Below are positions 10,650 through 49,748 of a stretch of DNA of 64,000 bases, one piece after another (positions within the stretch are counted from its first letter, which is position 1; every line of letters starts with the position of its first letter). The notes beneath the pieces are model-generated. The model was not told the origin of the DNA, searched no databases, and saw nothing but the letters and a program-made list of their open reading frames with translations. Position numbers and translations under genes: made by a program. The stretch is from a virus (Duplodnaviria > Caudoviricetes), in IMG/VR virus record IMGVR_UViG_3300036835_000480, positions 1,224-65,223 of that record. One strand, 5' to 3'.

Positions 10650-10746
10650 TGGCGTGATTGCGCCAGTTTTGGCTATAATTGGGCACGCCAAATGCCCGCG
10701 TGCCGCTAGGGACGGCCGCGGGCGTAGCACCGAAGGAGATGCTTCG
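10650..10746 (+). promoter_or_regulatory. endonuclease-cassette palindrome/-10 plus leader hairpin
   Basis: TGGCGTgattGCGCCA-8-TATAAT; hairpin 10693-10724. Confidence 0.75.
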
Positions 10747-11817
10747 ATGCCTCGTCAGGCTAGCACACGCCAGCCCCCGGTGACGCTTTCGTGCGCCCAG
10801 TGCGGCACGCCGTTTTGGCGTCACGTCTCGGAGGTCCGCAAGAACCCACCAGGGAGCCCCGCCTACTGCTCGCGGGCTTGCTGGCGCCGCGCCATACACG
10901 CCCAGCCCCAGGTCACCTGTACCTGTGAGCACTGCGGCGTGACATTCCAGCGCTGGGCCGCCATCGTCGAGAGTGGCCGAGGCCGCTTCTGTAGCCGGGC
11001 CTGCACCAACGATGGCCGTGATTCGCGGATTGCGCTGACGTGTGAACAGTGTGGTATTACGGTCTACCGCTGGCCCGCCGAACTGCGCCGCTCCCGCGCA
11101 TCCCAACATACCTACTGCTCGCGGGCCTGCGCTACCGAGGCCAAGCGCTCGTCGCTCCCTCGCATGGCCGTGTATGCCATCGTCCATCTGGCGAGTGGCC
11201 GGCTCTACATCGGGGCCACCACGCACCTCGTGCGCCGCTGGGGCAGCCACCGCTGGAAACTCGGCAACGGGTCGCACGAGAACCCCGTCCTGCAAGCGGC
11301 CTGGACGCGCGAAGGTGCCACCGCATTCGAGTTTCGCGTGTTGGAGACGGTGAGTGATCCAACCCAGTTGCCGGTCCGGGAACAAGCGTGGCTGGACGGC
11401 TCCCATAGTGCCGAGCCGGCACAGGGCTTTAATATCCACCCCCAAGCGGAGAGCCCGCGCGGGCGCAAACAGCGACCCGAGGTCATCGCTCGGATGGCCG
11501 AGCGACAGCGAGGGCGCCCCCACTCGGCCGCGACGCGGGCACGTATATCGGCGAGCGCGATGGGGAACCAGCGCGGCGTCGCGACCTTGAGACGGTATAC
11601 CGCACAGGCCCGTGCCTTGTCGGATACGCAAGTGGCCGCGATTAAACAGGCTCTCGCCGCTGGCGACTACGTCGCCGCCATCGCCAGACGGGCAGGGATC
11701 GCGACGTATGCAGTTGAACATATCGCCAGAGGGGACACCTATCGCCATGTCTTGCCCGAATTGGATGCGGCCCTGCGGCAGCGGGCCGATGGGCGCAAGC
11801 GCCGGCGGGGCTCTTAG
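10747..11817 (+). CDS. free-standing GIY-YIG homing endonuclease with zinc repeats and NUMOD3-like motifs
   Basis: AVYAIVHLASGRLYIGAT...RWGSH...HENPVLQAAW...REQAWLD...GFN; HSAATRARIS. Confidence 0.88.
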   Translation: MPRQASTRQPPVTLSCAQCGTPFWRHVSEVRKNPPGSPAYCSRACWRRAIHAQPQVTCTCEHCGVTFQRWAAIVESGRGRFCSRACTNDGRDSRIALTCEQCGITVYRWPAELRRSRASQHTYCSRACATEAKRSSLPRMAVYAIVHLASGRLYIGATTHLVRRWGSHRWKLGNGSHENPVLQAAWTREGATAFEFRVLETVSDPTQLPVREQAWLDGSHSAEPAQGFNIHPQAESPRGRKQRPEVIARMAERQRGRPHSAATRARISASAMGNQRGVATLRRYTAQARALSDTQVAAIKQALAAGDYVAAIARRAGIATYAVEHIARGDTYRHVLPELDAALRQRADGRKRRRGS

Positions 11818-11828
11818 AGCCAGGCCGT

Positions 11829-12359
11829 TCATGCCTCCACCGCCTCTCCCGCAGGGATAATGTCAATGGAACATTGACAATTTCCTAGTCAGGTTCTAGA
11901 GCCCACTTCGGGCAGAGTCCCCACCGGGACGGGGCCGCGATCGGTTAACTCCTGACATTCATCGCAGCTAGCCGCCGATTCACTCAAGACGTTCTGCTCC
12001 ATCGCATCTTCCGGAGCATCTCTGCGGATCACACCGCTATAGGTACCGCGAACCGCACCGCCGTACATGCTCAATCTTTGCATCGCCTGGGGCCCAAAAT
12101 CGCCTGGCGCCGTATCTAAACCTAGTACACTCAAATACGAGTACTGCTGTCTAAGCCGACTCCCCACAAACCCCCGCGTCGAGGCATCCATCTGGTCCCA
12201 GCCGCCCCTGGCCAGCGCCGCCGACGTGACGTGCGCATTCTTGAGGGTTTGTTGAACCCCGAGCCGCCAGGAAAGCGTGTCGAGCCCCTCCGCGCGCCGC
12301 TGGCCCCAGACGGCGAGCTCGGCTTTTGTGGCCGCTACCAGGTCGTCGAGGTTACTCAC
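11829..12359 (-). CDS. minor capsid/head morphogenesis (MuF-like) protein with an in-frame TGA at 11889-11891
   Basis: CDEC...LPEVGSRT[TGA]LGNCQCSIDII; frame continues 19 codons past the TGA; located after the portal gene. Confidence 0.7.
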
Positions 12360-12592
12360 GCCCCGCCTCCGAACTCGGCGCGCAGCGCCGCGGGGTCGAG
12401 GTCGAGCGCCGCGCAGGTGCGGCCGATGGCCCCCTGCGCGCGGACCAGGAAGGCGCGCTGCTCGGGCGCCAGCTCGGTCGCCACGCTGAGCACCAGCGCG
12501 CAGTAGCTCTGCGTGGCGATCAGCAGCGTCACCAGGTCGTAGACCGTGCTAAGCACGGCCACCGTCTGGGCCTCTTGTTCGAGCTGCCCCAT
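12356..12592 (-). CDS. hypothetical protein
   Basis: GTGA overlap with the minor capsid gene. Confidence 0.6.
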   Translation of the reverse strand: MGQLEQEAQTVAVLSTVYDLVTLLIATQSYCALVLSVATELAPEQRAFLVRAQGAIGRTCAALDLDPAALRAEFGGGA

Positions 12593-13003
12593 AGAACGTG
12601 CGGCAGGGGACTGTCGCCTTCAGGCGACAGAGGAATGCCGTCAGCCCGCAGGCTGAGCGCGTCCTCGTCCCCGCCTCACTCCTTCCGTTTATTGGCGTCG
12701 TTACGCCAAATCTCGTATACTACTAGGAGTCGGCTCTCCCTTGCGGACGGCGCCTCCGGGATGCCTCCAACCGCGTAAACGGTGACCCGACATGACCGGG
12801 GTAGCATGGCGAGCCGTGAGGCTCCCGGCGGGCAATCAGCGTACTGCCGTCCGCCCCGGCCGGGCTGCCCTAGGCCCTCGGGCCTAGCTCTCTCGCTAAG
12901 AGCATCACCCAGCCCAACGTAGGGGAGCGGGTGTCGCGAGTCCGGTGTCACGGGTCGAACGCTCCACTTACAAGCCGTTCGCCTTTAGGCGACGGTCGGT
13001 GAT
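12593..13003 (+). mobile_element. non-autonomous, ORF-less IS200/IS605-type element (411 bp)
   Basis: left hairpin CTGTCGCC-TTCA-GGCGACAG; right end CAAGCCGTTCGCCTTTAGGCGACGGTCGGTGAT; removal restores a TGATG stop/start overlap. Confidence 0.8.
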
Positions 13004-13023
13004 CAGCGCACCTGCCAGTTATC
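12726..13023 (+). ncRNA. candidate TnpB omegaRNA-like structured RNA with flank-derived guide
   Basis: downstream of TATACT (12716-12721); several hairpins (GAGCC-GTGA-GGCTC, CTAGGCC-CTCG-GGCCTAG); ends in the IS605 right-end hairpin. Confidence 0.5.
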
Positions 13024-13194
13024 CAGCCGCGGGTTCGGTCGCGGTGCGGGTACGGGCGGGCGCGCTGCGTTCCAGATGGTCGCGCGCGCGATCGCCTTGT
13101 AGGTCACCGCGTAGCCGTTGCCCGTGCCCCCGGCCTTCCCGCTCAGGCGCCAGGCCCAATCGGGGAGATCCCGCCGCGGCGTGCGGGCGCTCAT
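13003..13194 (-). CDS. hypothetical protein
   Basis: TGATG overlap with the upstream ORF. Confidence 0.55.
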   Translation of the reverse strand: MSARTPRRDLPDWAWRLSGKAGGTGNGYAVTYKAIARATIWNAARPPVPAPRPNPRLDNWQVR

Positions 13195-13403
13195 CAGCAC
13201 TGCCGCTGGTACCGCTGCGCCCACTCCCCCGCGAGCGTCAGCAGTCGCGCGAGATAGGGGCTCGCCAGCCACTCGGTCGGCTCGTCGTTGCCCGCTGCCC
13301 GCCGCGCGGCCCACTCGCGTTCGGTCGCCAGGAGCAAGGCCGACTGGAGCGGCTCCGGGTACCGCTCGATCGGCACGCCCCAAACGGACGCCAGGTCACT
13401 CAC
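13194..13403 (-). CDS. hypothetical protein
   Basis: overlaps the portal stop codon. Confidence 0.55.
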   Translation of the reverse strand: MSDLASVWGVPIERYPEPLQSALLLATEREWAARRAAGNDEPTEWLASPYLARLLTLAGEWAQRYQRQC

Positions 13404-16169: not shown

Positions 16170-17252
16170 GTGGCACACGAGATCCTGGGTAAGCGCTTCG
16201 GCCAGGTCGAGGGGCGCCGCCCCGCCTGGCACGGCATCCAGGGCGCGACGTTCGCGGTCGGCACGTCGGCCACCGCGGCGGCCGAGGCCATCGGCGCGCT
16301 CTACGAGGTCAGCAAGGAACAAGCCTACGTCCAGGTCGACGGCGTCTGGACGCCGATCCCCGACCAGTACGCCCTGGTCCGCCCCGACTTCGGCGGCAGC
16401 GAGGCCGGCGACGCGGGGCGCGTCATGCCGCAGGTCGTCAGCGGCAGCTACGAGCTGATCCAGCACCGCGACTTCGCCAGCATCCTCGATCCGCTCAGCG
16501 AGCGCTGGCAGGTCGAGACCGCCGGCGTCCTCTCTAACGGCGGCCAGCTCTTCTTCTGCTTCGCCGCCGGCCAGTACGTCGTCAACCAGGACGCAATCAA
16601 GCTCTACTGGATCGCCTCCGACTTCAAGAACGGCCGCGCCGCGCGCCTCTTCTCGGCGCACACCCGCGTCGTCTGCAATAACACGTTCATCATCGCCGAG
16701 AGCGGCGCCATCGCTAGCCTCAAGTTTCCCCACACCCGCGGCGTCGCCGCCGAGCTGGAGTTCGCCGTCGCGGCGCTCGCCGCCGCCGAGGCGCAGCAAG
16801 CGCAGGTCGCCGCGCAGCTCGAAGCGATGGGCCGCCATCCCCTCACCACCCAGGAGCTGCACACGCTGCTCGCCGCCACCTACCCGATGCCCCAGGCCCC
16901 CCGCCGCGTGCGCACCGTCGAGGCGCTGGAGCGCGGGCGCGCCTTCCTCGCCGAGCACGCCCCGCTGGCCGCCTACTCCGCGGACATCGCGCGGCTCGAC
17001 GAGGTCCACGCCCACAACCGCCAGCGCGTCGAGGAGCTGCGCGCGGCCACCCTGGAACGCTACCACGTCTTCGGCGCCGAGCGCTCCGACTACCGCGACA
17101 CGGCCTGGGCCGCCTGGAATGCGATCACCGAGGTGAGCAACCACCGCCAGGGGCGCAACGCGGCGACCGAGGGCGAGATGGTCCTCTTCGGCTACCGCGG
17201 CGACGAGATGCGCCGCGCCTGGCGCGAGCTGACTAGCCTGGCCGGCTGCTAG
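16170..17252 (+). CDS. DUF932-like phage/plasmid protein
   Basis: MAHEI...PAWHG, ETAGVL..G..LF, RVVCNNT, HT, TAWAAWNAITE..NH. Confidence 0.8.
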   Translation: MAHEILGKRFGQVEGRRPAWHGIQGATFAVGTSATAAAEAIGALYEVSKEQAYVQVDGVWTPIPDQYALVRPDFGGSEAGDAGRVMPQVVSGSYELIQHRDFASILDPLSERWQVETAGVLSNGGQLFFCFAAGQYVVNQDAIKLYWIASDFKNGRAARLFSAHTRVVCNNTFIIAESGAIASLKFPHTRGVAAELEFAVAALAAAEAQQAQVAAQLEAMGRHPLTTQELHTLLAATYPMPQAPRRVRTVEALERGRAFLAEHAPLAAYSADIARLDEVHAHNRQRVEELRAATLERYHVFGAERSDYRDTAWAAWNAITEVSNHRQGRNAATEGEMVLFGYRGDEMRRAWRELTSLAGC

Positions 17253-19210: not shown

Positions 19211-19722
19211 TAGGCGACTCCCGCCACGGCCTGCTCGACGGTCGGGTCGAAGCGCCGCCCCTGCATGATCGTCCAGGCCGCCTGCGGGCGCGCCAGCGGC
19301 GCGGGTACGTCGTAGACCAGCGCCACGTAGTAGGCGCCACCGCCGAGCCGCGGGTCGCGGCTGACTTTGTGCGGCGAATGCGAGTCCAGCAGGTAGAACG
19401 TACCGGCCGCCATCGGCGGCACCGTCGGATCGTCGGCCAGGCCGTGGACGCGCCAGCCGTCGTTGCGCACGATCCACTGGTAGGAGTAGCGCGTCGAGCC
19501 CGGATCCCAGTGCAGCGGTAGGCCGCCACGGACCCCGATCCAGTGCACCGTCTGGGCGTCGTGGCCCCAGGTCTGAATCCGCCGCGACGTGCCCGTGCCG
19601 AAACGCGGCGCGAGGACGCCGTCATCGGCGCGCGGCACCGGCTGGGCCGGCAGGTGGGCGCGCCAGAGAATCGCCTCGCGGACTTGATCGGGGCGGAGGA
19701 CCACGTCCGGCGGCAGGTTCAT
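19210..19722 (-). CDS. putative cupin/2OG-Fe(II) oxygenase-like protein
   Basis: PLHWD (HxD) and distal FYLLDSHSPHKV His motif. Confidence 0.5.
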   Translation of the reverse strand: MNLPPDVVLRPDQVREAILWRAHLPAQPVPRADDGVLAPRFGTGTSRRIQTWGHDAQTVHWIGVRGGLPLHWDPGSTRYSYQWIVRNDGWRVHGLADDPTVPPMAAGTFYLLDSHSPHKVSRDPRLGGGAYYVALVYDVPAPLARPQAAWTIMQGRRFDPTVEQAVAGVA

Positions 19723-20387
19723 GGCGCGCCTCCTAGCGGCGAGCGCCCGGCCTGGCGGGCGATCGCGATCTGGCTCTGGGTCACCCAGGCGCGGTGGTAC
19801 TCGCGGTCGGCAAAGAGCTTGGAGAAGCCGGTGATGTGCTTGAGGCGGAGCAGCTCCTCGGGCTCCAGCCCCAGCTCGTTGCAGATCGCCGCGTCGGTCA
19901 TCCCCTGATCGAGCATGCGGAAGACCATGTTCGCCATGCCGTCGACCGAGTGCTTGCCGCGGGCGCGGTTATGGCGCACCGTCGAGGCCATACGGTCGTT
20001 GATATCCTTGTCGATCACGACACAGGGTAAGCAGCCCCCACAGCGCGCCCGGATGGCATCATCCTGGCGCATCACGTAGTAGCGGTGGAAGCCGTCCACG
20101 ATGCAGTAGCGGTCGCGCGCCGCATCGTAGACCGTGACTACCGGCTGAGTATATCCGTCGTGCTCGATCGAGAGCCGCAGGAGATTCATCTCGATGCGCG
20201 CCACGCTATTCGGGTTATAGTCGTTCGGCTCGACCTGCTCGAGGGGAATCCACTGCACGGCGTCGACCGGCTGATCGGCGCGCGGGCTCAGGCGATGCAG
20301 CAGCGCGCGCACCGCGGCGATGGCGGCCAGCGGCTCGGGCGCCGCGGTAATCGCCGCCTCCAGGCGCTCAAGCAGAGCGGCGTCCAC
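19719..20387 (-). CDS. IbrB-like ParB/Srx domain protein
   Basis: PNDYNPNSVA, DGYTQPVV, IVDGFHRY, RMASTVRHNRARGKH. Confidence 0.9.
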   Translation of the reverse strand: MDAALLERLEAAITAAPEPLAAIAAVRALLHRLSPRADQPVDAVQWIPLEQVEPNDYNPNSVARIEMNLLRLSIEHDGYTQPVVTVYDAARDRYCIVDGFHRYYVMRQDDAIRARCGGCLPCVVIDKDINDRMASTVRHNRARGKHSVDGMANMVFRMLDQGMTDAAICNELGLEPEELLRLKHITGFSKLFADREYHRAWVTQSQIAIARQAGRSPLGGAP

Positions 20388-34960: not shown

Positions 34961-34974
34961 CTCCTTGCGTAGTA

Positions 34975-35040: not shown

Positions 35041-35056
35041 TATGTGTGGAGGAGCA

Positions 35057-36856: not shown

Positions 36857-36920
36857 CAGACGGCGGCGAGCAGCAGGACCAGGATCGCCAGGTAGCAGGC
36901 CACGTCCTCGCAGTAGCGGA

Positions 36921-37408: not shown

Positions 37409-37663
37409 TCTCTGCACCTCTGCAAACTCGCCGCCGAGGTATATAGTACGCCCCGGGCGCCAACTGTGCAAGGAGCGCTCCCGCGTTTGGTCGGATTGCA
37501 ACCGTGCAGCGCCGCGCGCGGTGGAGCTGGCGTCACAATGCGGTAAAGTTTCGCTCGGATATGCAAGATTGCAATAATACTGTGTTAGGATAGGGAGGGT
37601 CGCCGGCACGGCGGTCGCCGCGAGGGGAGTCGCATGCTCGCTACTGCGAATGGTGGGGCACAG

Positions 37664-38050: not shown

Positions 38051-38370
38051 TCACCTCCCCGCTCCCGTCGCGGGCCTCGCCCCACTCGCCGCCGCAGGCG
38101 CGGCAGACGTAGCGTACGACGCCGTAGAGGCACGCCCCGGGCGGGGCGTCGTAGGTCCAGTGAATACGAGTGGTGCAGCGGGGGCAGATGGCCGTCGTGG
38201 CTGGTGGCGTATAGCGGTCGGTGCTCACTCTGTGTGCTCCCCGGGCGCAGGACCTCGCAGGACCTGCGTACTCCACGCTCCAGAGTCAAGGGGATCGGCC
38301 GGGGCCCACCCGCACCCCACCGGCCTGAAGTAGAGTATCTATCCTAGCACACCTATCCGCCGGCGCGGCG

Positions 38371-39297: not shown

Positions 39298-39660
39298 GGC
39301 CCTCCCCCTCGGACAGTAGTTCGTGGCGGCAACTACCGCTAGTTAATGCGTCAAACGTTTGTAGAGCGTACTCCAGACAGTATATCCGAGCGCAAGTTTG
39401 GCGCCGGTGCTGGGCAAACGGCACGCGGGCGGCGCGCGCGCTCAGACGTAAACAGGGCGTTAACGGCCCCAGTCTTGTAGAAACGACGCCAGAAACCGCG
39501 TGTTCTGCGCTCTTGTAGAGCGCCCTCTTTACGGCTGAACGCCGGCGCGTTAAGCGGGACGTTTCGTCCGGTCCTGTGACGCGATTGTGATCCGTGGCGG
39601 GACCGGCCGGGACAGCGCGCGCCGGCCGGTCGACCAAACGCGCAGGGCTAGCATTTCGGG
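39298..39660. other. candidate attP/regulatory intergenic region
   Basis: non-coding gap next to the integrase; TTGTAGA repeats at 39359, 39475, 39513. Confidence 0.4.
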
Positions 39661-39661
39661 C

Positions 39662-39690
39662 TTGCAATTATTATTGGACTACTGTAGAAT
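39662..39690 (+). promoter_or_regulatory. conserved cassette promoter P5
   Basis: TTGCAA-17-TAGAAT, spacer TTATTATTGGACTACTG. Confidence 0.8.
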
Positions 39691-39731
39691 GAGAGTGTAG
39701 AAACCAAGCGCGCAAGGGAAGGAGCCCGAGA

Positions 39732-40136
39732 ATGCAGACCGAGATCACCCGCTACCACCGCACGGTGACCCAGTTAATCCCGCGCTACCGCGGGCGCTGG
39801 CTGGTGCCCGCGTCGAGCGGCAAGGCGGCCTACCAGATCGACGCCGCGGCGCGTACCTGCACCTGCCCCGACTATCAGCACCGCGGCGTCCGCTGCAAGC
39901 ACCGACTCTCGGTGAGCGTCGCCCTGCTCCTGGAGCGCGCCGAGGTCGAGGCGCTCGACCCGACGCCGCTGCCGATAGCCGGCGGCGCCGACGACGCCGA
40001 TTGGCAGGAGCAGGCGCCGCAGGGCGCCCCCGTCCAGGCCGACGCCCCCATCCCGCTCGAACTAACCGCTCGCGGCCTGCTCGCGGTCCTGCTCCCCGGC
40101 GCGGCCGTCGCGCCGCTGGGGGTGCGCCGTGGGTAA
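39732..40136 (+). CDS. SWIM zinc-finger protein
   Basis: CTCPDYQHRGVRCKH. Confidence 0.8.
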   Translation: MQTEITRYHRTVTQLIPRYRGRWLVPASSGKAAYQIDAAARTCTCPDYQHRGVRCKHRLSVSVALLLERAEVEALDPTPLPIAGGADDADWQEQAPQGAPVQADAPIPLELTARGLLAVLLPGAAVAPLGVRRG

Positions 40137-40248
40137 CAGCTTCTGGCTCTGGTTCGCCGTGATGCTCTTCTGGTCGATCGTCATCGGTTGGACGATTTTC
40201 AGCTTCACGCACGCCGTCGTCGCACGGCTGCCGTTCTAGGAGGACAGA

Positions 40249-41483
40249 ATGATCGAGCGTGAGCCGATCCTGCACCTGGACCGCGCCGCCGTCGCGCGCG
40301 TCGCCGACGACCTGGCGGCGCAGGGCGCCGACCCACGGACCGTGCAGCTTCTCCGCGACCTAGCGGCGCGCGAGGCGCTGCCCGCCGGCTGGAGCTGGGC
40401 GCTCTGCTGCACCCGCTGCCACACCCTGAGCATCGACGTAGCGCCCCGCTGGACGGCCCAGTACCGCCGCGCGCTCCCGCTCTGCGAGGGCTGCGCGACG
40501 ATCCTGAGCCAGACGGCGGGCTGGTAGGAGGCGGCAATGATCCCTGAGCTGCGCGCCCTGATCGCGCACTTTCACGAGATCGGAGACGAGACGATGACTC
40601 GCTTTCACGACACGCCCGATTGGGACACCAGCAATGCCCGCGGCATCGCCGAGGCGCTGCGCGACGAGATCGCTGCGGACTGGCGCTGGATGCAGCAGTG
40701 CCGCAAGGTGCTGCGCCTGCACGAGGCGCAGCCCGTCGATCCACAAGGCTACGACGTGGTGAGCGCGCGCCAGAGGGCCGACCGCGCCGAGCGGCGCCTG
40801 CTGCGGCTGATCGCGATTAGACGTGAAGGGATGGGCCGCCGTCCCCTGGGGCAGTATTACGAGCTGCCATCGGGGCAACCGAAAGCGCGCGAGGAGATCG
40901 CCCGATGAACGAGCAGCCCGATTGGGTCCGTGAGGCGCTCGCCGCCGCTGAGGCGCGCGACGCCCAGCAGGCCGCGCTTCAGCACGACCGCGAAGCCCAG
41001 GAGGTCGCGGACGACCGCCATCGCCTGGAGCGGCAACTGGAGCGCTGCGGCGTGCCGCTGGAGCGCGCGACGCTCACCTACCAGCGGGAGATCGAGCAGT
41101 GGTACGCCGCCGTCGACGGCCACCTGTTCACCTACCAAAACCGCGGCCTCGTGCGCCTGATCCCCTGCCCTGCTTGCGCGCGGCTCCTGCCGACCGTGCA
41201 CAGCGCGCAGGTGCTCGGCGCCGACATGGGCGCCCTGCTCCGCGCCGAGCAGGTCGAGTACCACCGCTGCTACGGGCGCCCGACGACCGATGCCGACTTC
41301 GACGAGAACGGCGACCTGCTCCCGGACTGCGACGACTGCCGTGCGATCCGCATGCTGTGCAGTATGCACTATCAGCGGCGCAGCCAGCCTATGCCGCAGC
41401 CGCCATCGACCCGCGAGGCGCTGCTGCTGGCGCTGGATGCCTACGTCGAGGAGCGGCTCGCCGGTAGCCTGAGAGACGATTAG
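40249..41483 (+). CDS. run of three hypothetical genes (40249-40527, 40537-40908, 40905-41483)
   Basis: each has an RBS or ATGA overlap; CxxC motifs in the first and third. Confidence 0.6.
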
Positions 41484-41611
41484 CGCGCCTCGCGCCTGGA
41501 GTGGATCATCGCGGGCTCGCTACCCGCCAGGCGCGCCGCGGGCCGGGAGCCCGAACCTCCCGACCCGCTCGCCGGCAGGCCCGCTAAAGGGGCCGCGGCA
41601 GGAGTAGTCTA

Positions 41612-41902
41612 ATGCGCACGCACCTCTCGCGCCTAGTCCTCGGCGGGATCGCCGCCGCCGCGCTCGCCGTCGGGATCGCCGGCACCGCGCCGCAGAGCGC
41701 GGCCGCGGCGCCCGACGAGCAGTACGTCACCTACTGGCCAACCGGCCTGAGCGGCGGCTGGTACTACGGCGGCTACGGGCTCGACCCCGTGGCCTACACG
41801 CCGACCATCAGCTACGGCTACTCGTACAGCCTGCCGTACCGCGGCGGCTACGTCCACCACGGCTACCGCCACTACTACCACGGGCACCGCCACTGGCGCT
41901 AA
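41612..41902 (+). CDS. secreted Gly/Tyr/His-rich small protein
   Basis: signal peptide then Y/G-rich region and YVHHGYRHYYHGHRHWR. Confidence 0.7.
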   Translation: MRTHLSRLVLGGIAAAALAVGIAGTAPQSAAAAPDEQYVTYWPTGLSGGWYYGGYGLDPVAYTPTISYGYSYSLPYRGGYVHHGYRHYYHGHRHWR

Positions 41903-41919
41903 GCCCCGCATCCCACGGC

Positions 41920-41952
41920 AGAGCCCCCGGTGCGACAACGCGCCGGGGGCTC
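41920..41952. terminator. GC-rich hairpin between convergent genes
   Basis: GAGCCCCCGG...CCGGGGGCTC. Confidence 0.55.
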
Positions 41953-41973
41953 CGCGGTCTCCCGCGCCCGCGC

Positions 41974-42255
41974 TCAGGCGGGGATCGGGTCGCTGGCCGC
42001 AGGATCGGGCGAGCTGCGCGCCGCCCCGCGCCCACGCCAGGAGCGCTTGACGGTGGGATGGTTGCGGCGGTAGTAGGCCGCAGCGTTGCAGTTCGGGCCG
42101 CAGTAGAGCTGGCGCGCCTGGGCCGGAAACTCGGTGCCGCAGACGGCGCAGCGCCGCGGACTCCGCTTGCGGCGGCTGGCGTTCTGCTTCATCGCCGCGA
42201 CGTAGCGCGCGGCATCCGCGGGATCCGCAAGGTCGTACTTCCGGGGGCGAGGCAT
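41974..42255 (-). CDS. small zinc-finger DNA-binding-like protein
   Basis: MPRPRK...CAVCG.EF......YCGPNC; AAGGAG RBS. Confidence 0.7.
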   Translation of the reverse strand: MPRPRKYDLADPADAARYVAAMKQNASRRKRSPRRCAVCGTEFPAQARQLYCGPNCNAAAYYRRNHPTVKRSWRGRGAARSSPDPAASDPIPA

Positions 42256-42357
42256 CGGCCACTCCTTAGTAATTCTCATGGTACTATAGCACATCCGTAC
42301 TAATCCGCAGCAAGGGGGCACGTCATCTGATACCGCGCAAGTCTCGCTCCCGCCTAT

Positions 42358-42386
42358 TTGCATTTATTATCGCACTACTGTACAAT
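42358..42386 (+). promoter_or_regulatory. conserved cassette promoter P6
   Basis: TTGCAT-17-TACAAT, spacer TTATTATCGCACTACTG. Confidence 0.8.
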
Positions 42387-42419
42387 GAGTGTAGAACGAG
42401 AGCACGAAGGAGGCCTACT

Positions 42420-42737
42420 GTGATCGAGCAGACGCTTAGCCCGGAGCGCGAGATGCTCGCCGCGTGGGCGCGGGCGATGACGGCGTATGATGTCGCCGCT
42501 GAAGCGGCAGGCACGCTGATACAGCCTTATTGCTGCATCGGGGGCTACCGCTGGGATGCCCCCGCCTACGTTGCGCCGCTGGACGAGCTGCTGTGCAGCC
42601 TCCTGATCCCACCGGCGCCGCACTACAGCAAGCTCGGCCCGCCGCCCCTGGCGAAGTCGTGGACCAAGGTTCGGAAATTGGAGCGCCTGACGGCCCAGAT
42701 CGTCGCCGCGACGCAAGCCGCCCAGAGGGGGGAGTGA
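42420..42737 (+). CDS. hypothetical protein
   Basis: AAGGAGG RBS after P6. Confidence 0.65.
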   Translation: MIEQTLSPEREMLAAWARAMTAYDVAAEAAGTLIQPYCCIGGYRWDAPAYVAPLDELLCSLLIPPAPHYSKLGPPPLAKSWTKVRKLERLTAQIVAATQAAQRGE

Positions 42738-42739
42738 GA

Positions 42740-43279
42740 ATGTCCCGCGCAATGCTGCTCATTGGCCTGATCATACTGGGCCTCGGCACCTTCGTCTGGG
42801 CCGCCACGCGCGGCGCACCACCGCCGCCCGTAGATACGCTCGCCGGCCTGACCGCGGCGGAGAAGGCCGCCGCCTACCAGGCGCAGCTCGACGCGATGCG
42901 GCCCACGCCCGAGCTACAGCCGACCGAGGCGCCCTGGACCGAGCGCGCGATCCACGGCGCGCCGCCCGCCGAGCGTACGCCAGTCGCCGTCGCCATGTGT
43001 GGCCCGGAGGCCCTCCAGGCAGCGCGCGCCTACCGTGCGCCGGGCGCGAGCGCTCCGATCGACCAGACCGTGATCCACAATCTTCAGCGCGGGCATAAGC
43101 CGCTGGGCGCCGTGCGGGACTGGAAGATCGCCGAGCGCTCGCGGGATACCTGCAGCATCGGGCTCCATGTGGTCTACGGCAACGAGCTGCTGATGCTCTC
43201 CTGGGTCTGGCGCCCGGCGACGGGCACGCTGCAGGTGAGCGGGCCGGATTGGGAGACGAAATACTACTCCGGCTGGTAA
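42740..43279 (+). CDS. membrane-anchored hypothetical protein
   Basis: N-terminal TM helix MLLIGLIILGLGTFVWAA. Confidence 0.65.
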   Translation: MSRAMLLIGLIILGLGTFVWAATRGAPPPPVDTLAGLTAAEKAAAYQAQLDAMRPTPELQPTEAPWTERAIHGAPPAERTPVAVAMCGPEALQAARAYRAPGASAPIDQTVIHNLQRGHKPLGAVRDWKIAERSRDTCSIGLHVVYGNELLMLSWVWRPATGTLQVSGPDWETKYYSGW

Positions 43280-43286
43280 TCCCCGC

Positions 43287-43315
43287 TGGTTGTTAGCATC
43301 GGGCTACTGTACAAT
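43287..43315 (+). promoter_or_regulatory. conserved cassette promoter P7 (degenerate -35)
   Basis: spacer TTAGCATCGGGCTACTG then TACAAT. Confidence 0.65.
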
Positions 43316-43345
43316 GAGAACAGAGACGCGCAAGGAGGAGCCCTG

Positions 43346-45440
43346 ATGCCTGAGCCGCCCACGCATCTCACCGTCGCCATCCGCCGGCTACCCTGGCCGA
43401 CGTTCCATCTGGTGCTCGCCAGCGGCGGGCCGGCCGACGGCAGCCTCTACGGCTTCACGACGCTCTGCGGTCGCCCGATCCGCGATCTTGATGGCTGGCA
43501 GGAGCGCCCGAATCAGCCTGGTACCTGCCGCGTCTGCTGCCGCGCGCTCGCCGCGGCCGACGCTCGACTCAAAGGAGGCATCGCCCATGCCTGAGACCTG
43601 CGTCCACTGCCACGCGCGCCCCGTGCAGCTCCACTACGGCGCCCCGATCTGCTATCTCTGCTACTGCAACGCCACGGGCTACGGCCCCGAGGAGCTGGCC
43701 GAGCAGCTCGCCACCAGCGAGGCCGACTACACCGCCCGCCTCACCGCGCTCCGCGCCGAGCTGGTCCCGCTCCTGCTCGCCGAGCCGAACGGTCGGGCCT
43801 ACTGGCGCGACAAGGGTTACGCATGGGCGCAGGAGGCGACCGATGACTGACTCCGACGAGATTCGCGTCGAGTCGCTCTACGGCGCGCGCACCGACGCGC
43901 CGCTGGTGAAGCTGATCGCTGGCCCGCACGAATGGATCATGCCTCCTGCCAAGGCACAAGCCATCGCCGGTATGCTGTTGGAAGCGGCTGAGGCCAGCAT
44001 TTCGGACGCTTTCCTGGTGCGCTGGATCATGAAAACGGTCGGCGCTCCGCGTGAGGCAACGGCCCCGGTCCTACGCGAGTTCCGCCAGTTCCGCGAGTTG
44101 TCCCGCCGCCAGGGCCGCGAGCAGGAAGAAGCCGATCAGGCGGAGTGGGAGGCGCGCGATGAATAAGCCGGGCTGGCAGTGTCCCCTATGCGGGCGCGTC
44201 TCCTACCATCCCGAGGATGCGGCCAATCGCTACTGCTCGTGCTGTGGTGGGCCGTACTTGCCGAAGCAGTGTCCGCACCAGCACGAGGCCAGGTGGGAGG
44301 AGCGCGATGATCAGTGACCTGGCAACGACGGAGGGGCAGAGATGACGCCGGAGCAATTACAGGATTTGCAGGCGGACTGTGTCGAACTGCGCGACCACGG
44401 GTGCGACCCCGGCGGGTTCGCGCCGCGCTGTCTGGAGTTGCTCGCCGCGTACGATGCCCAGACCACCCAGCTCGCCACCGCCGAGCAGGCGCGGGACGAT
44501 GCGCTGGAGCGGATAGCGACGCTCGAAGCAGTCATGAAGAGTGACGCCACCATGAACCGCATCCAGGCCGACAGTGCTCAGTTGCGGCGTGTCAATCTGG
44601 ACCTCGTACAGCGGGTGCACCGCCTGGCCGCCCTGGCGCAGGCCGCGCGGGACTACCTGGACCGCAACAAGTTTCACGATGCGGCGATTGAGGCGGCCGT
44701 CGCGGCGCTCGACGCGGCACCCGCGGCCGATGAGAGCGGTCAGCTTGCGTAAAGGAGCTAGAGGAAAGGGTAAATAGGATTGGACCACCCCGGGAGGCGC
44801 ACAATGCATGACCTCGGCCGCCACCCGCTCCTAGATGCGCTGTGGGAGAGTCTCCCGCCGGCCGGCAGCCCGTGGCCGCTCGCGGAGCAGGAGGCGTGGC
44901 TGGCGGTCGCCCGCGCGGTGCTGCCGCTGGTGTATCCGAGTGGGGAGCCGGCCTGATGGTCTACCAGCTCGACCTGACGCGCGATGCCACCTGTTATATC
45001 TGCGACAAGGCGATGTACGCCGGCGACCCGTGCTACGCCACCGGCCGCGGCGGGAGTCGCCGCCTCTACTGCTCGTCCTGGTGCGCCGACCCGCGGCCCT
45101 GTACCGGCTGCCGGCACCCCCAGCGGTATCACGCGGCGTGGGGCTGCTTCGCGCCGGTGGTCGATCGGTACGGGAACGAGGGCGCCTGTTCATGTCGCAT
45201 AGGACGAGTGGACTAACAATGAGCGAATCCGAGCCACTCGCCCGCGGCGACGTGATCCAGCTCGACCCCGCCCACGACACGACGTTTGGGGGCTGCCTGT
45301 TCATCGTCACCGCGGTCAAGACGTGGGGCGTGCAGGCCGTCTGCATCATGCCGCACACGGAGGGCCCCCGGCAGGCGTACTACCGCGCGCCGTGGGGCCG
45401 CTTCGCGCGCGTGGGCGCCGCGCCCTGGCCGCTGGAGTAG
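43346..45440 (+). CDS. operon of short hypothetical genes (43346-43594, 43587-43850, 43843-44166, 44159-44317, 44342-44752, 44956-45216, 45219-45440)
   Basis: overlapping starts/stops, GGAGG-type RBSs, several CxxC motifs. Confidence 0.6.
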
Positions 45441-45960
45441 GAGGCCCGCCGTGACGCGCCGCCTGACCGCCGCGCAGACGACCTGGCGCGCCGCCCGCCG
45501 CGCCTGGGGCGGCTTACTCTGCTACTACCTCCGCGCCTACCTGGCGCGCCGGGAGGCCGCCTGCCCGAGCGCCCCCGCTCCTACCACCCGGGCAACCACC
45601 GCCCTCGGCCTACGCGCCGACGCCCCAGCCGAGGAGCACCCCCAGGAGCGCGACGAGCAGCAGCGCCAGCGCGACCAGGACGGCGCGGAGCAGTAGCGCG
45701 CGCGGCGTCACCCCAGCCCCCTCCCCCCGTTGCCCCTGCGCGGCGTTCTCGGCCGTCGGGGGTGCTAACTACCTACGCGAACCCCGGACCGCCCCTACGG
45801 CCGTCCTGGTGCGAATACGGGCCTACCGGTGGCCCCGCCGCGGGGCACGGGCGCTCCTAGCTCGGCGCCAGCCAGAGCAGCAGGTTCACCAGCGCCAGGA
45901 CCGCGCCCAGCAGCGCCATGTCGCTCCAGGTCCAGTGCTCGGTCATGCGCGACTGCTTTC

Positions 45961-46058
45961 TGGCGTCGTTACGCCAATTCTGCTAGAATTGTAGACCGCA
46001 AAAGGCCGGGCGCTGTTAGAGCAGCCCCGACCGTGACGCCGAGCGCTGGAGACGCCCG
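45961..46058 (+). promoter_or_regulatory. endonuclease-cassette palindrome/-10 plus leader hairpin
   Basis: TGGCGTcgttACGCCA-7-TAGAAT; hairpin 46004-46032. Confidence 0.78.
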
Positions 46059-46763
46059 ATGCCTCATCAGTCTACCAAGCTCCTCCGAGCCTGTGAATAC
46101 TGCGGTAGTTCGTTTTCTATCTACCCCGCCTGGCTTAGACTTGGTGCAGGCCGGCATTGTTCCAACGTATGCGCGGGCCGGTCACGCCGACGCTCATTAG
46201 CCGATCGCCTCTGGGCGCGCGTGGTGAAGACTCCCACTTGCTGGCTCGTAAGCGGCCATCTGCTGCCTAGCGGGTATGCGCGAGTTATGCGTGGCGATGG
46301 CGATCGGACTAGTATCAGCGCACATCGGGCAGCCTGGATGCTCGCCAGCGGAGCCACGATCCCGCCTGGATACTCGGTGCTCCATACTTGTGACAATCGC
46401 GCCTGCGTCCGCAATGATGAGCCCGGTATCTATATCATCCACGGCGTTGAATATCAGCGGTGGGGGCACCTGTTTCTCGGGACCCAGCAACAGAATATCC
46501 ACGATATGTATTCCAAAGGACGCGGCTACAGTCGGACCGAGTGGCATCGGGAGAGCGCCAGGGCGCATCTCGCCGAGGTGCGTAACCGCGCTCGTGGAGA
46601 AGCACATCATCGGGCTCGGCTGACGGAAGCACAAGTCTTAGCCATCAGGGCCGAGTATCTACCCTTCAAGATGACTGCTCGCATGCTTGCCGCTCGCTAC
46701 GGGGTCAGCATCCCAACTATCAGGTTTATCCTACGGCGACGTATCTGGCAGCATCTGCCCTAA
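46059..46763 (+). CDS. free-standing HNH homing endonuclease
   Basis: CWL...GY...AHRAAW...VLHTCDNRACV...HLFLGT.QQN..DM..KGR; GE.H.RARLT HTH. Confidence 0.9.
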   Translation: MPHQSTKLLRACEYCGSSFSIYPAWLRLGAGRHCSNVCAGRSRRRSLADRLWARVVKTPTCWLVSGHLLPSGYARVMRGDGDRTSISAHRAAWMLASGATIPPGYSVLHTCDNRACVRNDEPGIYIIHGVEYQRWGHLFLGTQQQNIHDMYSKGRGYSRTEWHRESARAHLAEVRNRARGEAHHRARLTEAQVLAIRAEYLPFKMTARMLAARYGVSIPTIRFILRRRIWQHLP

Positions 46764-47431
46764 TGCCCAACACCGCGCACGGTATTGATAACCGCCTGTC
46801 CCGACTGTGCTGCTGCCCCAAATCCTTCTTGATCCGTAGCAAGGTGCGTATTCACCATGCTATCCAGCGCGCTCTGCATCGCGTCCATGCAATCGCCCTG
46901 GATATACCCCAACTGGTTGATCAGGGCTTCGACTTCGGCGCTGCTCACATCGTCCTCCTCGTAGGGCATGACAACCATCGAGAATGGACCCAGGCCCTCG
47001 AACTGGGCGCGGCTCATCGCCTGTCCGACGCCCTTCCAGCCAGGCGCACTATTCGCCAGCGCCAGCGTGCCGTCCGCATTGATTCCGCGGCAGCCGCACC
47101 AGTGGTACCAGCCGCGGCCCCCGAGCAGGACCGGATACGTCCCGGCTAGCGCCAGCACGTTCTCCCACGTCGCATAGGCGATATTCGCCGCGGGTACCGC
47201 GTAGTGCTCCTGGATGTACTGCACGAGCCCAGCGCCCGAGGCGTCGAGCAGCCCGACCGCCGGGTCTACCGGCCACGGCGACATGTCCGCCACCAGGGCA
47301 GCTTTATCCACCTCGTAGCCCAGACTCGTGAGCCCCCACCAGGTCGAACAGATCGAGCACGTCCAGTCGGTCATCTGGAGATGCACCGGCGCGCTCGCAT
47401 CGTACGGCTCGGGCGCGATCCCGTCACTCAT
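46760..47431 (-). CDS. putative endolysin, C39-like cysteine peptidase
   Basis: Q..DWTCS (Cys), WYHW (His), LANSAPG (Asn); follows tail genes and a holin-like gene. Confidence 0.7.
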   Translation of the reverse strand: MSDGIAPEPYDASAPVHLQMTDWTCSICSTWWGLTSLGYEVDKAALVADMSPWPVDPAVGLLDASGAGLVQYIQEHYAVPAANIAYATWENVLALAGTYPVLLGGRGWYHWCGCRGINADGTLALANSAPGWKGVGQAMSRAQFEGLGPFSMVVMPYEEDDVSSAEVEALINQLGYIQGDCMDAMQSALDSMVNTHLATDQEGFGAAAQSGQAVINTVRGVGH

Positions 47432-47435
47432 CCCC

Positions 47436-47636
47436 TTACGCCTCGCGCTCCCGGCCCAGCGCTTCGCGCATCGTCGCGCGATACTGCGCCGCTTCCTCCG
47501 TCAGGCGCTCGATCTGGGCGCTCATCATCTTGCTGTAGGCGAACCAGAGCGCGCTGATCGCTCCCGCCAGCGCGACGAGCAGCGCGGTGATCACAGTGAT
47601 CTCCCCGCCCGAGAAGCAGACCGGCCCGCTCTCCAC
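47436..47636 (-). CDS. putative holin-like TM protein
   Basis: one TM helix plus charged coiled-coil, directly upstream of the endolysin. Confidence 0.55.
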   Translation of the reverse strand: MESGPVCFSGGEITVITALLVALAGAISALWFAYSKMMSAQIERLTEEAAQYRATMREALGREREA

Positions 47637-47684
47637 CGCCCCCTCCCTACGCCGCGCCCCGCGCGCCGCGCATCGCCGCCCGCC

Positions 47685-47978
47685 TTAATTCGGCGCCCCG
47701 GCGTAGGCGTTGAACAGGCTGATGACGACGAACTCCAGGTCGTTGTCCGGGCTGTCCGCCGTGATTACCGGGTTCGTGGCCACCCCCAGCGCCATATTCA
47801 TGCCGTGGACCTCCGGCTGGAGTAGGCACTGGTTGGCGTACGCCGTGCGCTCGTCGTGGTGCAGCGTCGTGCGGTCCTCGGCCATTACGTCGATAGACAC
47901 TTTCGTTAGCGCCATCGTCACTCGCTGCTGAAAGACCGGATCGTTCGCCAGCGCGTAGCCCTCCTGAAAGCTGCTCAT
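47685..47978 (-). CDS. hypothetical tail-module protein
   Basis: ATGA overlap, 97 aa. Confidence 0.65.
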   Translation of the reverse strand: MSSFQEGYALANDPVFQQRVTMALTKVSIDVMAEDRTTLHHDERTAYANQCLLQPEVHGMNMALGVATNPVITADSPDNDLEFVVISLFNAYAGAPN

Positions 47979-48271
47979 GGCGGACTCGCAATCTGGCGCT
48001 CTTGCGCGAGCGCCGCCTTCGCCGCTAACCGCTCGTCGAGCGTCGGCGTGGGTGGTCTCGTCGGGTCGTGCGCCGCGACGACGGCATCGACCTCAGCCAC
48101 CGGCGTCGCCTCCGGCCAGGTGATCTGTACGAACGTCGCGTCCCCCTCGACGCTATAGTGCGCCGTCCGCTCCCCGGCCGCGTTCGTCGTCGTCCACGCC
48201 GGGAATGCCGCGGCTAGCTCCTCCGTGAGCTTGGGTAGGCGCACTGGCGTGTCATAGCGTTTCGTCGTCAT
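47975..48271 (-). CDS. hypothetical tail-module protein (possible fibre chaperone)
   Basis: LTEEL...VVAAHDP; follows the fibre gene. Confidence 0.6.
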   Translation of the reverse strand: MTTKRYDTPVRLPKLTEELAAAFPAWTTTNAAGERTAHYSVEGDATFVQITWPEATPVAEVDAVVAAHDPTRPPTPTLDERLAAKAALAQERQIASPP

Positions 48272-49644
48272 TGGCTGCTCAGTCGCACACAGGCAAAGTA
48301 CGACTCTGCCGCACCGACGGTGATCGCGCCGCCGCTGTTTTGATAGAAATCGACGTTGACCCAGGCCCCCACGTTCAGGCGCGCCAGTCCCACGATGCCC
48401 ATCCGCGGGTAGGCCGACGCTGACGGCGCCACCGCATTGCCCCCAATGACGAGCCCGCTATCCGTCACGAACCGCCCCAGGCGGGTGCCCACCGCGCTGA
48501 GATTGTTGATCTGGAGCAGCGCCGTAAACAGATACAGCCCCCCGAGTCCGGTCGGGATCGTAATCCGATCATTGTTCGTCGCATTGTCATGGAACGCATC
48601 CGTATCGCTAAACTCCGTATTCCAGGTAATCGGCGTAAAGACCGAATCGTTCACGCTCTGATCGCCGCCGCTCTTCGCCACGATCGCGTAGGGGCTGCGC
48701 GGCAGATCGCCGAGCGCGATCGCCGCCAGCGCGTGCGCGTGGTCGCGCCGCGCGGCGACGCCCGCGCTCCCGACGGCGCCCGCGCCGCCGTAGGCCAGCG
48801 CCGGCGGCAGCGTGGCGTCGAAGAGCGGCAGCGTGGCATCCGATCGCAGCAGCGTCGGCGCACTGCCGGGCGCCGCGGCGGTGCCGAAGACGAGCGCCGG
48901 CGTGGCGAACGCCTCGCGCCCGTGTTTATGGTCGCTCCGCGCTACCGTCGTCGCGCTACCCGCCGCGGCGGCATCCCCGACCGCGCTGGTGCCGGGCGTC
49001 CCGAAGGCTTCGCGCCCGTGCTTATGATCGGCGCGCGCCAGCGTCGTCGCGGTGCCGTCCGCCGCCGCATCGCCGACCGCACTGCTCCCCGGGCTGCCGT
49101 AGCCCGGCATGGGGTTCGCCGGCATCCCGTGCTTGTGATCCGAGCGCGCATCCGTCGTCGCCGTCCCTGCCGCCGGACTATCCCCGAACGCCGCGGTGCC
49201 GGGCGTGCCATAGCCTTCCCGCCCGTGGACGTGGTCGCTGCGCGCCAGCGTCCCCGCCGTCCCGGCGCTCGCGCTATCCCCGACCGCGGAGTTACCGGGC
49301 GTCCCAAACGCCTCGCGCCCGTGCCGGTGGTCGCTGCGCGCGAGGCTCGCTGCCGCCCCCGCCGCGGCGCTGTCCCCCGGTGCGGAGCCGCCGGGCGTGC
49401 CGAACGCCTCCCGCCCGTGCGTGTGCTGGCGCCGCGCCGCGAACCCGTCCGCCGCGCCGGCCGCCGCCGCATCACCGGGCGCCGAGGTCGAGGGCAGCGT
49501 CGTGTCGTCGAAGGCCACGCCTGGATCGCCCGGGGGGCCCTGTGGGCCGGTAGGGCCGGGGGCGCCGGGGCTTCCCGCCGGGCCCGTGGCCCCATCTGCC
49601 CCAGGCGGACCCGCGATGTTACCCGTAAGCGTCCAGACCATCAA
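48268..49644 (-). CDS. tail fibre protein with collagen start, DHxH repeats and C1q-like tip
   Basis: ARSDHxHGREAFGTPG repeats; ITWNTEFSDTDAFH...RITIPTG.GGLY. Confidence 0.8.
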   Translation of the reverse strand: MMVWTLTGNIAGPPGADGATGPAGSPGAPGPTGPQGPPGDPGVAFDDTTLPSTSAPGDAAAAGAADGFAARRQHTHGREAFGTPGGSAPGDSAAAGAAASLARSDHRHGREAFGTPGNSAVGDSASAGTAGTLARSDHVHGREGYGTPGTAAFGDSPAAGTATTDARSDHKHGMPANPMPGYGSPGSSAVGDAAADGTATTLARADHKHGREAFGTPGTSAVGDAAAAGSATTVARSDHKHGREAFATPALVFGTAAAPGSAPTLLRSDATLPLFDATLPPALAYGGAGAVGSAGVAARRDHAHALAAIALGDLPRSPYAIVAKSGGDQSVNDSVFTPITWNTEFSDTDAFHDNATNNDRITIPTGLGGLYLFTALLQINNLSAVGTRLGRFVTDSGLVIGGNAVAPSASAYPRMGIVGLARLNVGAWVNVDFYQNSGGAITVGAAESYFACVRLSSQ

Positions 49645-49648
49645 AAAC

Positions 49649-49748
49649 TCCCGTCTGGACGCCGAATTCGGGTATACTGTAAATACCTGAATAGCCCCGC
49701 GGCGCTAGAGACGCCCGGGGCCGCGGCACCCCAACGTTGGAGGTTAGG
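49649..49748 (+). promoter_or_regulatory. endonuclease-cassette (partial) palindrome/-10 plus leader hairpin
   Basis: TCCCGTctggACGCCG-8-TATACT; hairpin 49694-49721. Confidence 0.68.

Follow-up and report, generated by a model that had tools for sequence, protein, structure and literature searches.

Free-standing homing endonucleases are among the commonest selfish genes of phages, and control of their expression that is safe for the carrier is known almost only from T4. We analysed a 64,000-nucleotide stretch of phage DNA (hereafter the window), bases 1224-65223 of the 65,223-bp IMG/VR virus record IMGVR_UViG_3300036835_000480 (estimated to be 75% complete, 70% G+C), in which copies of a 16-base palindrome, TGGCGT-N4-ACGCCA, lie at a fixed distance upstream of the -10 boxes of homing endonuclease genes (HEGs). 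The sequencing runs containing the phage are soil metagenomes. By PHROG and Pfam scans it is predicted to be a temperate siphovirus: the minus strand carries head, portal, terminase, tape-measure and tail-fibre genes, an integrase (Table 1) and several helix-turn-helix (HTH) genes of Cro/CI type are present, and the window encodes seven endonuclease genes of HNH or GIY-YIG type.

Palindromes upstream of the -10 boxes

The motif is a 6-4-6 dyad, the arms of which are kept, whereas the four central nucleotides (nt) vary (GATT, CGTT, AATG, ACTC and CAGG). Five sites, here A to E, had been reported by a reading of the DNA without database searches (the sequence-only reading); all five are present with their -10 spacings (Table 1), and the identity of 12693-12709 and 45961-45977 over 17 bp, noted by the same reading, was confirmed. 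Its attribution of the sites to five mobile elements stands for four of them (A, C, D and E), which precede HEGs, and fails for the site at 12693, an orphan head without a nuclease gene. In degenerate site E, three of the 12 arm positions deviate, two of them in the left arm. Altogether, the head is a unit of about 130 nt in which the palindrome, the -10 box, a GC-rich hairpin (HP1) and a second hairpin (HP2) follow each other and are succeeded by codons 4-6 of the gene; the head rows of Table 1 extend to the -10 box.

Table 1 Heads, cassettes and associated features, in positions of the window
Feature	Position	Strand	Description
Site A	10650-10665	+	TGGCGTgattGCGCCA-8-TATAAT
Head A	10646-10679	+	ATTC, palindrome, 8 nt, TATAAT (10674-10679)
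Leader A	10680-10746	+	HP1 about 10692-10725; HP2 about 10727-10750, across Shine-Dalgarno sequence (SD) and start codon; covariance model R1, 72.8 bits
Reverse -10 box A	10757-10762	opposite	TAGCCT, preceded by TGC
HEG A	10747-11817	+	GIY-YIG + NUMOD3, 356 aa
Site B	12693-12708	+	TGGCGTcgttACGCCA-7-TATACT
Head B (orphan)	12689-12721	+	Palindrome, 7 nt, TATACT (12716-12721); then remnant start ATGCCTCCAACCGCGTAA
Site C	26585 to 26570	-	CGGCGTaatgACGCCA-7-TATACT
Head C	26557-26589	-	Palindrome, 7 nt, TATACT (26562-26557)
Leader C	26556-26483	-	Upstream of HEG C
Reverse -10 box C	26467-26472	+	TACACT
HEG C	26482-25745	-	NUMOD4 + HNH_3 + HTH, 245 aa
Site D	45961-45976	+	TGGCGTcgttACGCCA-7-TAGAAT
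Head D	45957-45989	+	TTTC, palindrome, 7 nt, TGC + TAGAAT (45984-45989)
Leader D	45990-46058	+	Upstream of HEG D
Reverse promoter in HEG D	46097-46069	-	TTCACA-17-TAGACT with TG in front; called by promoter scan
HEG D	46059-46763	+	HNH_3 + C-terminal HTH, 234 aa
Site E (degenerate)	49649-49664	+	TCCCGTctggACGCCG-8-TATACT
Head E (degenerate)	49645-49678	+	Palindrome, 8 nt, TATACT (49673-49678)
Leader E	49679-49748	+	Covariance model, 84.8 bits
Reverse -10 box E	49764-49759	-	TAGACT, preceded by TGG
HEG E	49749-50342	+	HNH_3, 197 aa
Integrase	38371-39297		PHROG/Pfam scans
RNA-library contigs, HEG D	45829-46055, 46027-46305, 46209-46359, 46417-46567		
RNA-library contigs, HEG E	49773-49923, 49880-50045, 50073-50244		
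RNA-library contig, CI-like gene	37247-37427		

With up to one mismatch allowed, the complete 65,223-bp record holds five palindromes against one for the backwards control, and four of these five near-perfect copies have a TAnnnT box 7-8 nt downstream. Composite sites of this kind (≤1 mismatch plus TAnnnT at 7-8 nt), four in the record, had a mean of 0.013 in 150 first-order Markov simulations, two of which contained a single site and none more than one. The palindrome alone with up to two mismatches was not significant (9 against 4.84 expected, a count reached by 6 of 100 shuffles); therefore, the signal consists of near-perfect copies together with their fixed distance to the -10 box. Occurrence at background frequency, which the sequence-only reading had named as the outcome that would speak against a function, does not apply to the composite sites. 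The fifth near-perfect copy, at 34501, lies inside an HNH gene, has no -10 box and may be a chance match. Additionally, a perfect dyad, CGGCGTctggACGCCG, without a nearby -10 box is located at 16340-16355 on the plus strand inside gene 16170-17252, and has 13 consecutive bases (CGTCTGGACGCCG) in common with degenerate site E. Including this copy, the perfect 5+5 core GGCGT-N4-ACGCC occurs four times against about 0.33 expected by a hand estimate from base composition.

The left arm occupies the -35 position, 17-18 nt before the -10 box; since 7-8 nt separate it from a strong -10 box, the dyad spans about -35 to -20. The promoters of D and E were not called by a consensus scan, as none of their -35 hexamers reaches four of six matches. 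The core promoters of the phage consist of a TTGCAT-like box, 17 nt and a TACAAT-like box. Six of them, on the plus strand at 6767, 16123, 39685, 42381, 43310 and (a variant) 5591, are free of the palindrome, which bears out the earlier remark that it had not been noticed at core phage promoters. As the core promoters have a TTGCAT -35 box and the headed promoters are devoid of a usable -35 box, the palindrome marks a separate, second promoter class. The core family, with a further member at 15186 on the plus strand, is uniform in other respects: the 17-nt spacer is AT-rich and conserved (TTATTATCGnACTACTG), and TACAAT is followed by GAG. These promoters precede plus-strand islands of small genes amid minus-strand structural and replication genes, and their spacer may be a regulatory site itself.

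Two familiar promoter architectures do not describe the headed promoters. Operators of MerR type have their dyad in the interval between a -35 and a -10 box spaced by 19-20 nt; the present dyad is not placed between two such boxes, its left arm being at the -35 position. Sigma-54 promoters have GG and GC elements at -24/-12 and no TATAAT -10 box; here the GC is one base off the needed spacing and a strong TATAAT-like box follows.

Orphan head B is followed by about 280 nt (12722-13000) without an open reading frame (ORF), then by the 3' end of minus-strand gene 13003-13383 and by the portal gene. As a decayed endonuclease gene, this region found no backing in tblastn searches with the seven endonucleases of the window (best E value 0.23). 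As a structured RNA it is not unusual (fold z-score of -1.69), and the Rfam scan of 12650-13100 gave a single chance-level match (E value 0.37). The orphan could be a decayed cassette or an antisense promoter directed against the late operon.

Leader hairpins and the opposite strand

Between the -10 box and the gene lies a leader that can be traced independently of the palindrome. An IMG/VR scan whose query comprised nothing but the ribosome site and start codon of HEGs D and E, together with their codons 4-6, returned 43 loci. In 17 of these (14 distinct sequences, G+C 0.50-0.70) the layout is the same: the -10 box precedes a GC-rich hairpin, the loop of which has 7 nt, and an SD follows. The genes behind these 17 leaders encode HNH, NUMOD4 or GIY-YIG proteins that start with M-x-x-Q-S-T. 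The alignment of 18 leaders comprises two helices, and 13 of the 15 predicted pairs have compensatory changes (both sides changed in at least one sequence). HP1 is the GC-rich hairpin; in HP2 a conserved GCA pairs with the UG of the start codon and the next base, and the flanks of the SD pair with each other. HP2 extends across SD and start codon in the consensus fold and in single folds of A, C and G001 (a related phage fragment, see below), and both of its arms are located 45-90 nt downstream of the -10 box. The covariance model recovers the four leaders of the window and those of five other loci (G001, L207, L164, L161 and L314); in related loci totalling 980,661 bases, it has no other match of weight. 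The hairpin leader is widespread among uncultured high-GC phages, whereas the palindrome is not.

Rfam families at gathering score were absent from the window, and no tRNA or tmRNA was found in it. A possible interaction of the CAGUCUACC codons with the HP1 loop, or with the 5' end, was considered and rejected: by eye the pairing amounts to 4-6 bp in some copies and is absent from others. A weak match of the leader model (36596-36669, minus strand; 15.4 bits, E value 0.087), with an HP1-like hairpin and CAGTGTAAC, is located just upstream of the HTH_31+HTH_17 gene 35758-36549.

The first codons of the headed genes carry, on the opposite strand, a box resembling a -10 element. In HEG D, its TAGACT is the complement of the conserved codons CAG-TCT-A. 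A reverse TAnnnT box is present in all eight headed or related cassettes, and among the six unselected ones, i.e., those not chosen by codons 4-6, it lies at the same base in five (A, TAGCCT; C, TACACT; L164, TATCGT; L207, TACACT; L314, TACAGT) and 4 nt off in L161 (TATACT). The residues encoded under the box vary (Q/N and S/C/A/D), and TG stands before it in A, D, E, G001 and L164. The presence of codons TCT, TGT and GCT, rare in a 70% G+C genome, would be explained by a conserved reverse -10 box. On the opposite strand, T-rich tails follow HP1, e.g., CCTTTTGC in D. In HP2, the antisense strand shows the better pairing, with 100 Watson-Crick, 16 wobble and 9 mismatched cells against 100, 4 and 21 for the sense strand, counts that derive from a rough MAFFT alignment. 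From these features we infer a short antisense RNA that would start from codons 4-6, run across the start codon, SD and HP2, and reach HP1.

Two soil metatranscriptome runs, X7 and X8, searched with 32001-52000, contain contigs identical to parts of the phage (Table 1; some late genes are also covered), which are silent on strand, start and level and could stem from carried-over DNA. The low depth of run X6 over HEG D was left out of account, as the gene is not bridged by any contig. One of the contigs, 45829-46055, covers both palindrome and promoter and bears on a different function for the palindrome, namely that of an RNA element. Read backwards, A, B, D and E would form a 6-bp tetraloop hairpin in the late-operon transcript, just upstream of the ribosome site of the next gene, and affect processing or stability. 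In A, D and E, a minus-strand start codon is indeed located 5-20 nt past the palindrome. In D, a small minus-strand ORF starts at 45946, 14 nt left of the palindrome. At E, the left arm, on the opposite strand, overlaps the SD (GGGAG) of the neighbouring gene 48268-49644 (minus strand), and this site plausibly decayed because its left arm must also supply that ribosome site. Nevertheless, we regard the RNA element as highly improbable: cassette C is co-oriented with its neighbours, yet its palindrome keeps the same distance to the -10 box; the fixed 7-8-nt distance would be meaningless; and the stem is short.

Distribution of the head outside the window

The IMG/VR scan for the exact palindrome followed by TAnnnT returned 87 stretches, of which one, G001, has the leader and 86 are without it. 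G001, a fragment of 17 kb, belongs to a distant relative; identity is 50% for the portal and 36-56% for four other proteins. Its head, in locus L096, drives a gene for a 750-aa SNF2-helicase/N6_N4-methylase starting with MQPQSTT, and therefore the head is not tied to endonucleases. The symmetry in this copy extends to perfect 10-bp arms, GAACTGGCGT and ACGCCAGTTC. The headed block (L096, 4297-8040) consists of the SNF2-helicase/methylase fusion and two small ORFs, and looks like an accessory or defence-like module that uses the nuclease head. In metagenomes, the exact palindrome was found at 56 loci, 53 without leader and three that are clear cassettes: L164 encodes an HNH protein of 253 aa and adjoins a 32%-identical homologue of window gene 46760-47431, on the opposite side of that gene; L207 encodes an HNH protein of MYPQCT type; and L161 a GIY-YIG protein 44% identical to that of HEG A.

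Across the eight good copies (A, B, C, D, G001, L164, L207 and L161), seven to eight of eight bases are identical in the arm columns, four to seven in the centre, and two to six, mostly three to four, in the columns beyond -5 upstream. Farther than 4-5 nt upstream of the palindrome, the sequence is no longer conserved. Flanks and centre are also common to B, D, L164 and L207 (TTTC...CGTY...AAT).

Insertions are marked at their edge by the head. HEG A and its head are inserted relative to G001, where the homologues of the flanking genes overlap by 4 nt; the headed block of G001 sits between homologues of 35758-36549 and 35465-35761, both HTH genes and adjacent in the window. Between D and L164, 22 of 22 head bases are identical and the remaining cassette aligns at 0.65, the baseline, given by the unrelated remainder of B, being about 0.5. 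Judged by the D and L164 pair, the neighbouring protein of which is only 32% identical, heads outlast their cassettes, and the 22 identical bases suggest recombination at the head.

Several further matches were set aside or are recorded as observations. G002 (L022/L097) has the palindrome and TATAAT beside a tRNA 3' end, lacks the leader and is unrelated by BLAST, and the 11 IMG/VR loci with the ATGTAYCCNCAGTGTAC pattern are all ORF-less and were taken as chance matches. Two metagenome loci, L190 and L204 (G+C 0.39 and 0.49), have the exact palindrome and a -10 box before homologous genes, whose products start with MAV.. then ..TEE.L....DK; they probably represent an unrelated family that happened on the same dyad. 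The leader-bearing HNH cassette L140 has tandem 10-bp palindromes, GGACATGTCC and GGACGTGTCC, 18-40 nt upstream of TATACT, and L122 has AAGTCttcgGACTT at a similar position upstream of the leader. Operators specific to other lineages may thus exist; as GC-rich DNA commonly contains short inverted repeats, these two loci were not counted as support.

Proposed regulation of the headed genes

The best explanation of these data is a head that, within a narrow lineage of temperate soil siphoviruses, serves free-standing HEGs and, on occasion, accessory genes of other kinds. We give an even chance to the reading in which a regulated promoter of sigma-70 type, with the palindrome as its operator, forms the 5' end of this portable head, and a dimeric regulator and an antisense RNA make up a double lock. 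Most likely, the palindrome would be the docking site of a regulator that keeps the nuclease genes off until needed. A dimeric DNA-binding protein, in all likelihood a repressor, encoded by phage or host, would sit on the dyad and block RNA polymerase. The reverse promoter inside the first codons would produce an antisense RNA of about 70 nt over the start codon and the ribosome site, ending at HP1. Together they would lock nuclease production twice, and the lock would open when the regulator leaves. The logic of such a lock would be that of symE-symR of Escherichia coli and of the control of restriction enzymes by controller proteins or reverse promoters. A site for a dimeric regulator, as the sequence-only reading had proposed, is still the best interpretation of the kept arms, the -35 position, the conservation edge and the spacing that recurs in G001 and the three metagenome fragments.

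A number of results weigh against the operator or the antisense RNA. No copy of the palindrome stands at the regulator genes of the window or of G001, hence there is no sign of autoregulation, and no binding protein was found. Elsewhere the leader manages without the palindrome, which unbiased locus sets mark as lineage-specific: it is present in one of the 17 leader-bearing loci of the start-region scan and absent from all 79 loci that contain relatives of HEG D, and among 80 portal-relative loci it occurs in one, which is G001 itself. The portal relative L314 (49% identity) has the leader but is devoid of the palindrome, and copy E has lost the left arm and kept the remaining head features. 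The perfect arms of G001, L164, L207 and L161, four of the eight good copies, are due to the search, which used the exact palindrome, and the common flanks and centre of B, D, L164 and L207 could reflect descent or gene conversion, not selection of a binding site. As regards the antisense RNA, only D and L164 have reverse -35 boxes that are not poor, HP1 was not called on the opposite strand by a strict terminator scan, and the alignment behind the strand bias of HP2 is rough.

A rival explanation has no regulator at all. The palindrome would then be just the upstream part of a promoter head spread by duplication, gene conversion or recombination between cassettes, and its symmetry would be incidental or serve as a small hairpin of DNA or RNA. 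Flanks, centre and arms agree among B, D, L164 and L207 (19-22 of 22), a shift by one base turns the sequence into CTGGCG or TTGGCG, which is weakly -35-like and has a spacer of 18 nt, and in other phages the same leader works behind quite different upstream sequences. There is also a precedent in the PeSL of T4-type phages, promoter and stem-loop cassettes described as exchange points (PMC4122927). We consider this explanation possible but rather unlikely, as both arms are kept in heads with independent centres and flanks (A, C, G001 and L161), a -35 box would not need two-arm symmetry, and the symmetry in G001 reaches perfect 10-bp arms.

Returning to the operator with a dimeric regulator, several proteins could serve. 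The window and G001 both encode an XRE protein (35465-35761 in the window), for which identity is 54% and the recognition helices are similar, and one of HTH_31+HTH_17 type (35758-36549), with 36% identity. Further candidates are the winged-helix protein 26578-27018 (minus strand), whose gene has its stop codon within palindrome C, a CI-like protein (37163-37408), two ParB-like proteins and the C-terminal HTH of the endonucleases themselves. One ParB-like protein (19719-20387), named IbrB in some matching phage records, adjoins a PAPS-reductase-like (IbrA-like) protein at 19719-22167 on the minus strand; the IbrA/IbrB pair, which in other annotations co-activates the expression of prophage genes, is a possible candidate regulator of the heads.

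If the endonucleases bound the palindrome by their shared C-terminal HTH, all copies would be mutually repressed, a collective variant of the autorepression known for I-TevI (PMC2988022). Related C-terminal HTH domains are present in HEGs A, C, D, L164 and L207, and HEG E, which has a degenerate palindrome, is without that domain. Such a scheme is unlikely on several grounds: the SNF2-methylase under the G001 head has no such domain, and the C-terminal domain of L161 differs. The HTH family is common in relatives of HEG D, yet the palindrome is missing from all 79 such loci, and HEG 34026-34793 has the domain but no such promoter. Presumably, such enzymes are also monomers, as is generally held.

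The sequence-only reading had considered a DNA-damage response possible. In this case, host LexA or an equivalent would bind the site, and DNA damage or prophage induction would lead to nuclease production. No LexA box known to us is matched by the motif, and the phage immunity region holds no second copy of the dyad. Clues to the host are weak. The phage has no DNA match to cultured phages and no close cultured relative; the identity of its portal, capsid, ParB-like and HNH proteins does not exceed 55%, with matches spanning phages of many phyla. The portal alone as a query found no relative in genome contigs or viral contigs; the best matches of a portal profile, 44-45% on short contigs of a Terriglobales and a Mycobacterium metagenome-assembled genome, are too weak for naming a host. 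An identical portal protein (P0001) is carried by five contigs, of which the longest has 130,221 bp. The scan of candidate host genomes, suggested by the same reading, found the exact palindrome in none of four weakly linked genomes (the control matched three), and the palindrome with a -10 box in one of 401 sampled genomes of one phylum, against three for the backwards control. The damage response is therefore unsupported, though not refuted either. A 16-bp dyad over a promoter does have SOS-box geometry, the phage is predicted to be temperate (integrase, CI/Cro-type HTH genes), and the closest working analogue, symE-symR, is LexA-repressed (PMC3874152). On balance, we rate control by LexA as very improbable.

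In design, symE-symR, a type I toxin-antitoxin pair of E. coli, comes closest to the heads. The operator of a dimeric repressor overlaps the promoter of this nuclease-like toxin gene, and within the gene's 5' end a reverse promoter gives a short antisense RNA over the ribosome-binding site (PMC3874152). The likeness would consist of a repressor-type site over the promoter combined with an antisense RNA, putative in the present case, across the ribosome site. There is no sequence relation, and the phage operator is not a recognised LexA box. Unlike symE-symR, the heads serve homing endonucleases and one SNF2-methylase, are portable and multi-copy in the phage, and their antisense RNA is only inferred. 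Tentatively, and with less confidence than in the operator itself, we suggest that a double lock like that of symE-symR became a portable head of about 130 bp, swapped by unrelated HEG families and accessory genes across uncultured high-GC phages, and that in this phage one dimeric regulator commands all selfish nucleases as a regulon. In our judgement, the proposed portable double-lock head is a wider and more interesting object than the palindrome.

Type II restriction-modification systems offer a second comparison. In these systems, small HTH dimers (C proteins) on palindromic promoter operators time nuclease expression, and EcoRI and Eco29kI have convergent reverse promoters and antisense RNA (PMC3874152). 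Unlike these systems, the cassettes hold no C gene, and the operator is a single dyad. It also has no match to the C-box, GACT/AGTC.

For a mobile promoter-plus-hairpin unit, the PeSL of T4-type phages are the closest precedent: these short promoter and stem-loop units flank variable accessory genes and are thought to be exchange points (PMC4122927). They are terminator/early-promoter units of AT-rich myoviruses, whereas the heads have stem-loops downstream of the promoter and a dyad operator. A terminator stem-loop directly upstream of an early promoter, which defines PeSL, is not what the heads contain.

The titles and abstract openings listed in literature searches on free-standing HEG promoters and stem-loops, mobile regulatory cassettes, I-TevI autorepression and antisense RNA of homing endonucleases contain no description of a shared dyad operator on phage HEGs. 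If the proposed reading is true, a temperate high-GC soil phage runs several unrelated nucleases through one operator and an antisense/hairpin lock, and the control unit is itself a mobile module that also serves other accessory genes. It would represent a regulon of selfish genes that is open to testing, an expression head for high-GC hosts that is compact and tightly off by default, and a sequence signature for finding nuclease insertions in metagenomes.

The comparison with T4 concerns the same class of genes. I-TevI has an operator over its own promoter and a hairpin that sequesters the ribosome-binding site (PMC2988022). As with I-TevI (and with I-TevII as well as I-TevIII), the HEG's own promoter is overlapped by a protein site, here a putative one, and a hairpin hides the SD. 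The T4 operators are asymmetric copies of the homing site of each enzyme, while the heads have one symmetric site across GIY-YIG, NUMOD4-HNH, HNH_3 and SNF2-methylase genes. In T4 the promoter lies inside the hairpin and late transcripts escape, whereas both HP2 arms are downstream of the predicted start. The heads share the principle of T4 but fail the defining details of both T4 mechanisms. A different design is found at HNH gene 1366-2280 of the window, where TATACT is wrapped in an inverted repeat (CTGTGAGaag ... cCTCACAG; 2290-2345, minus strand), a promoter-inside-hairpin layout as in T4. The IMG/VR loci L131, L132 and L135 have a similar TTGCCTCC-N21-GGAGGCAA arrangement around the -10 box.

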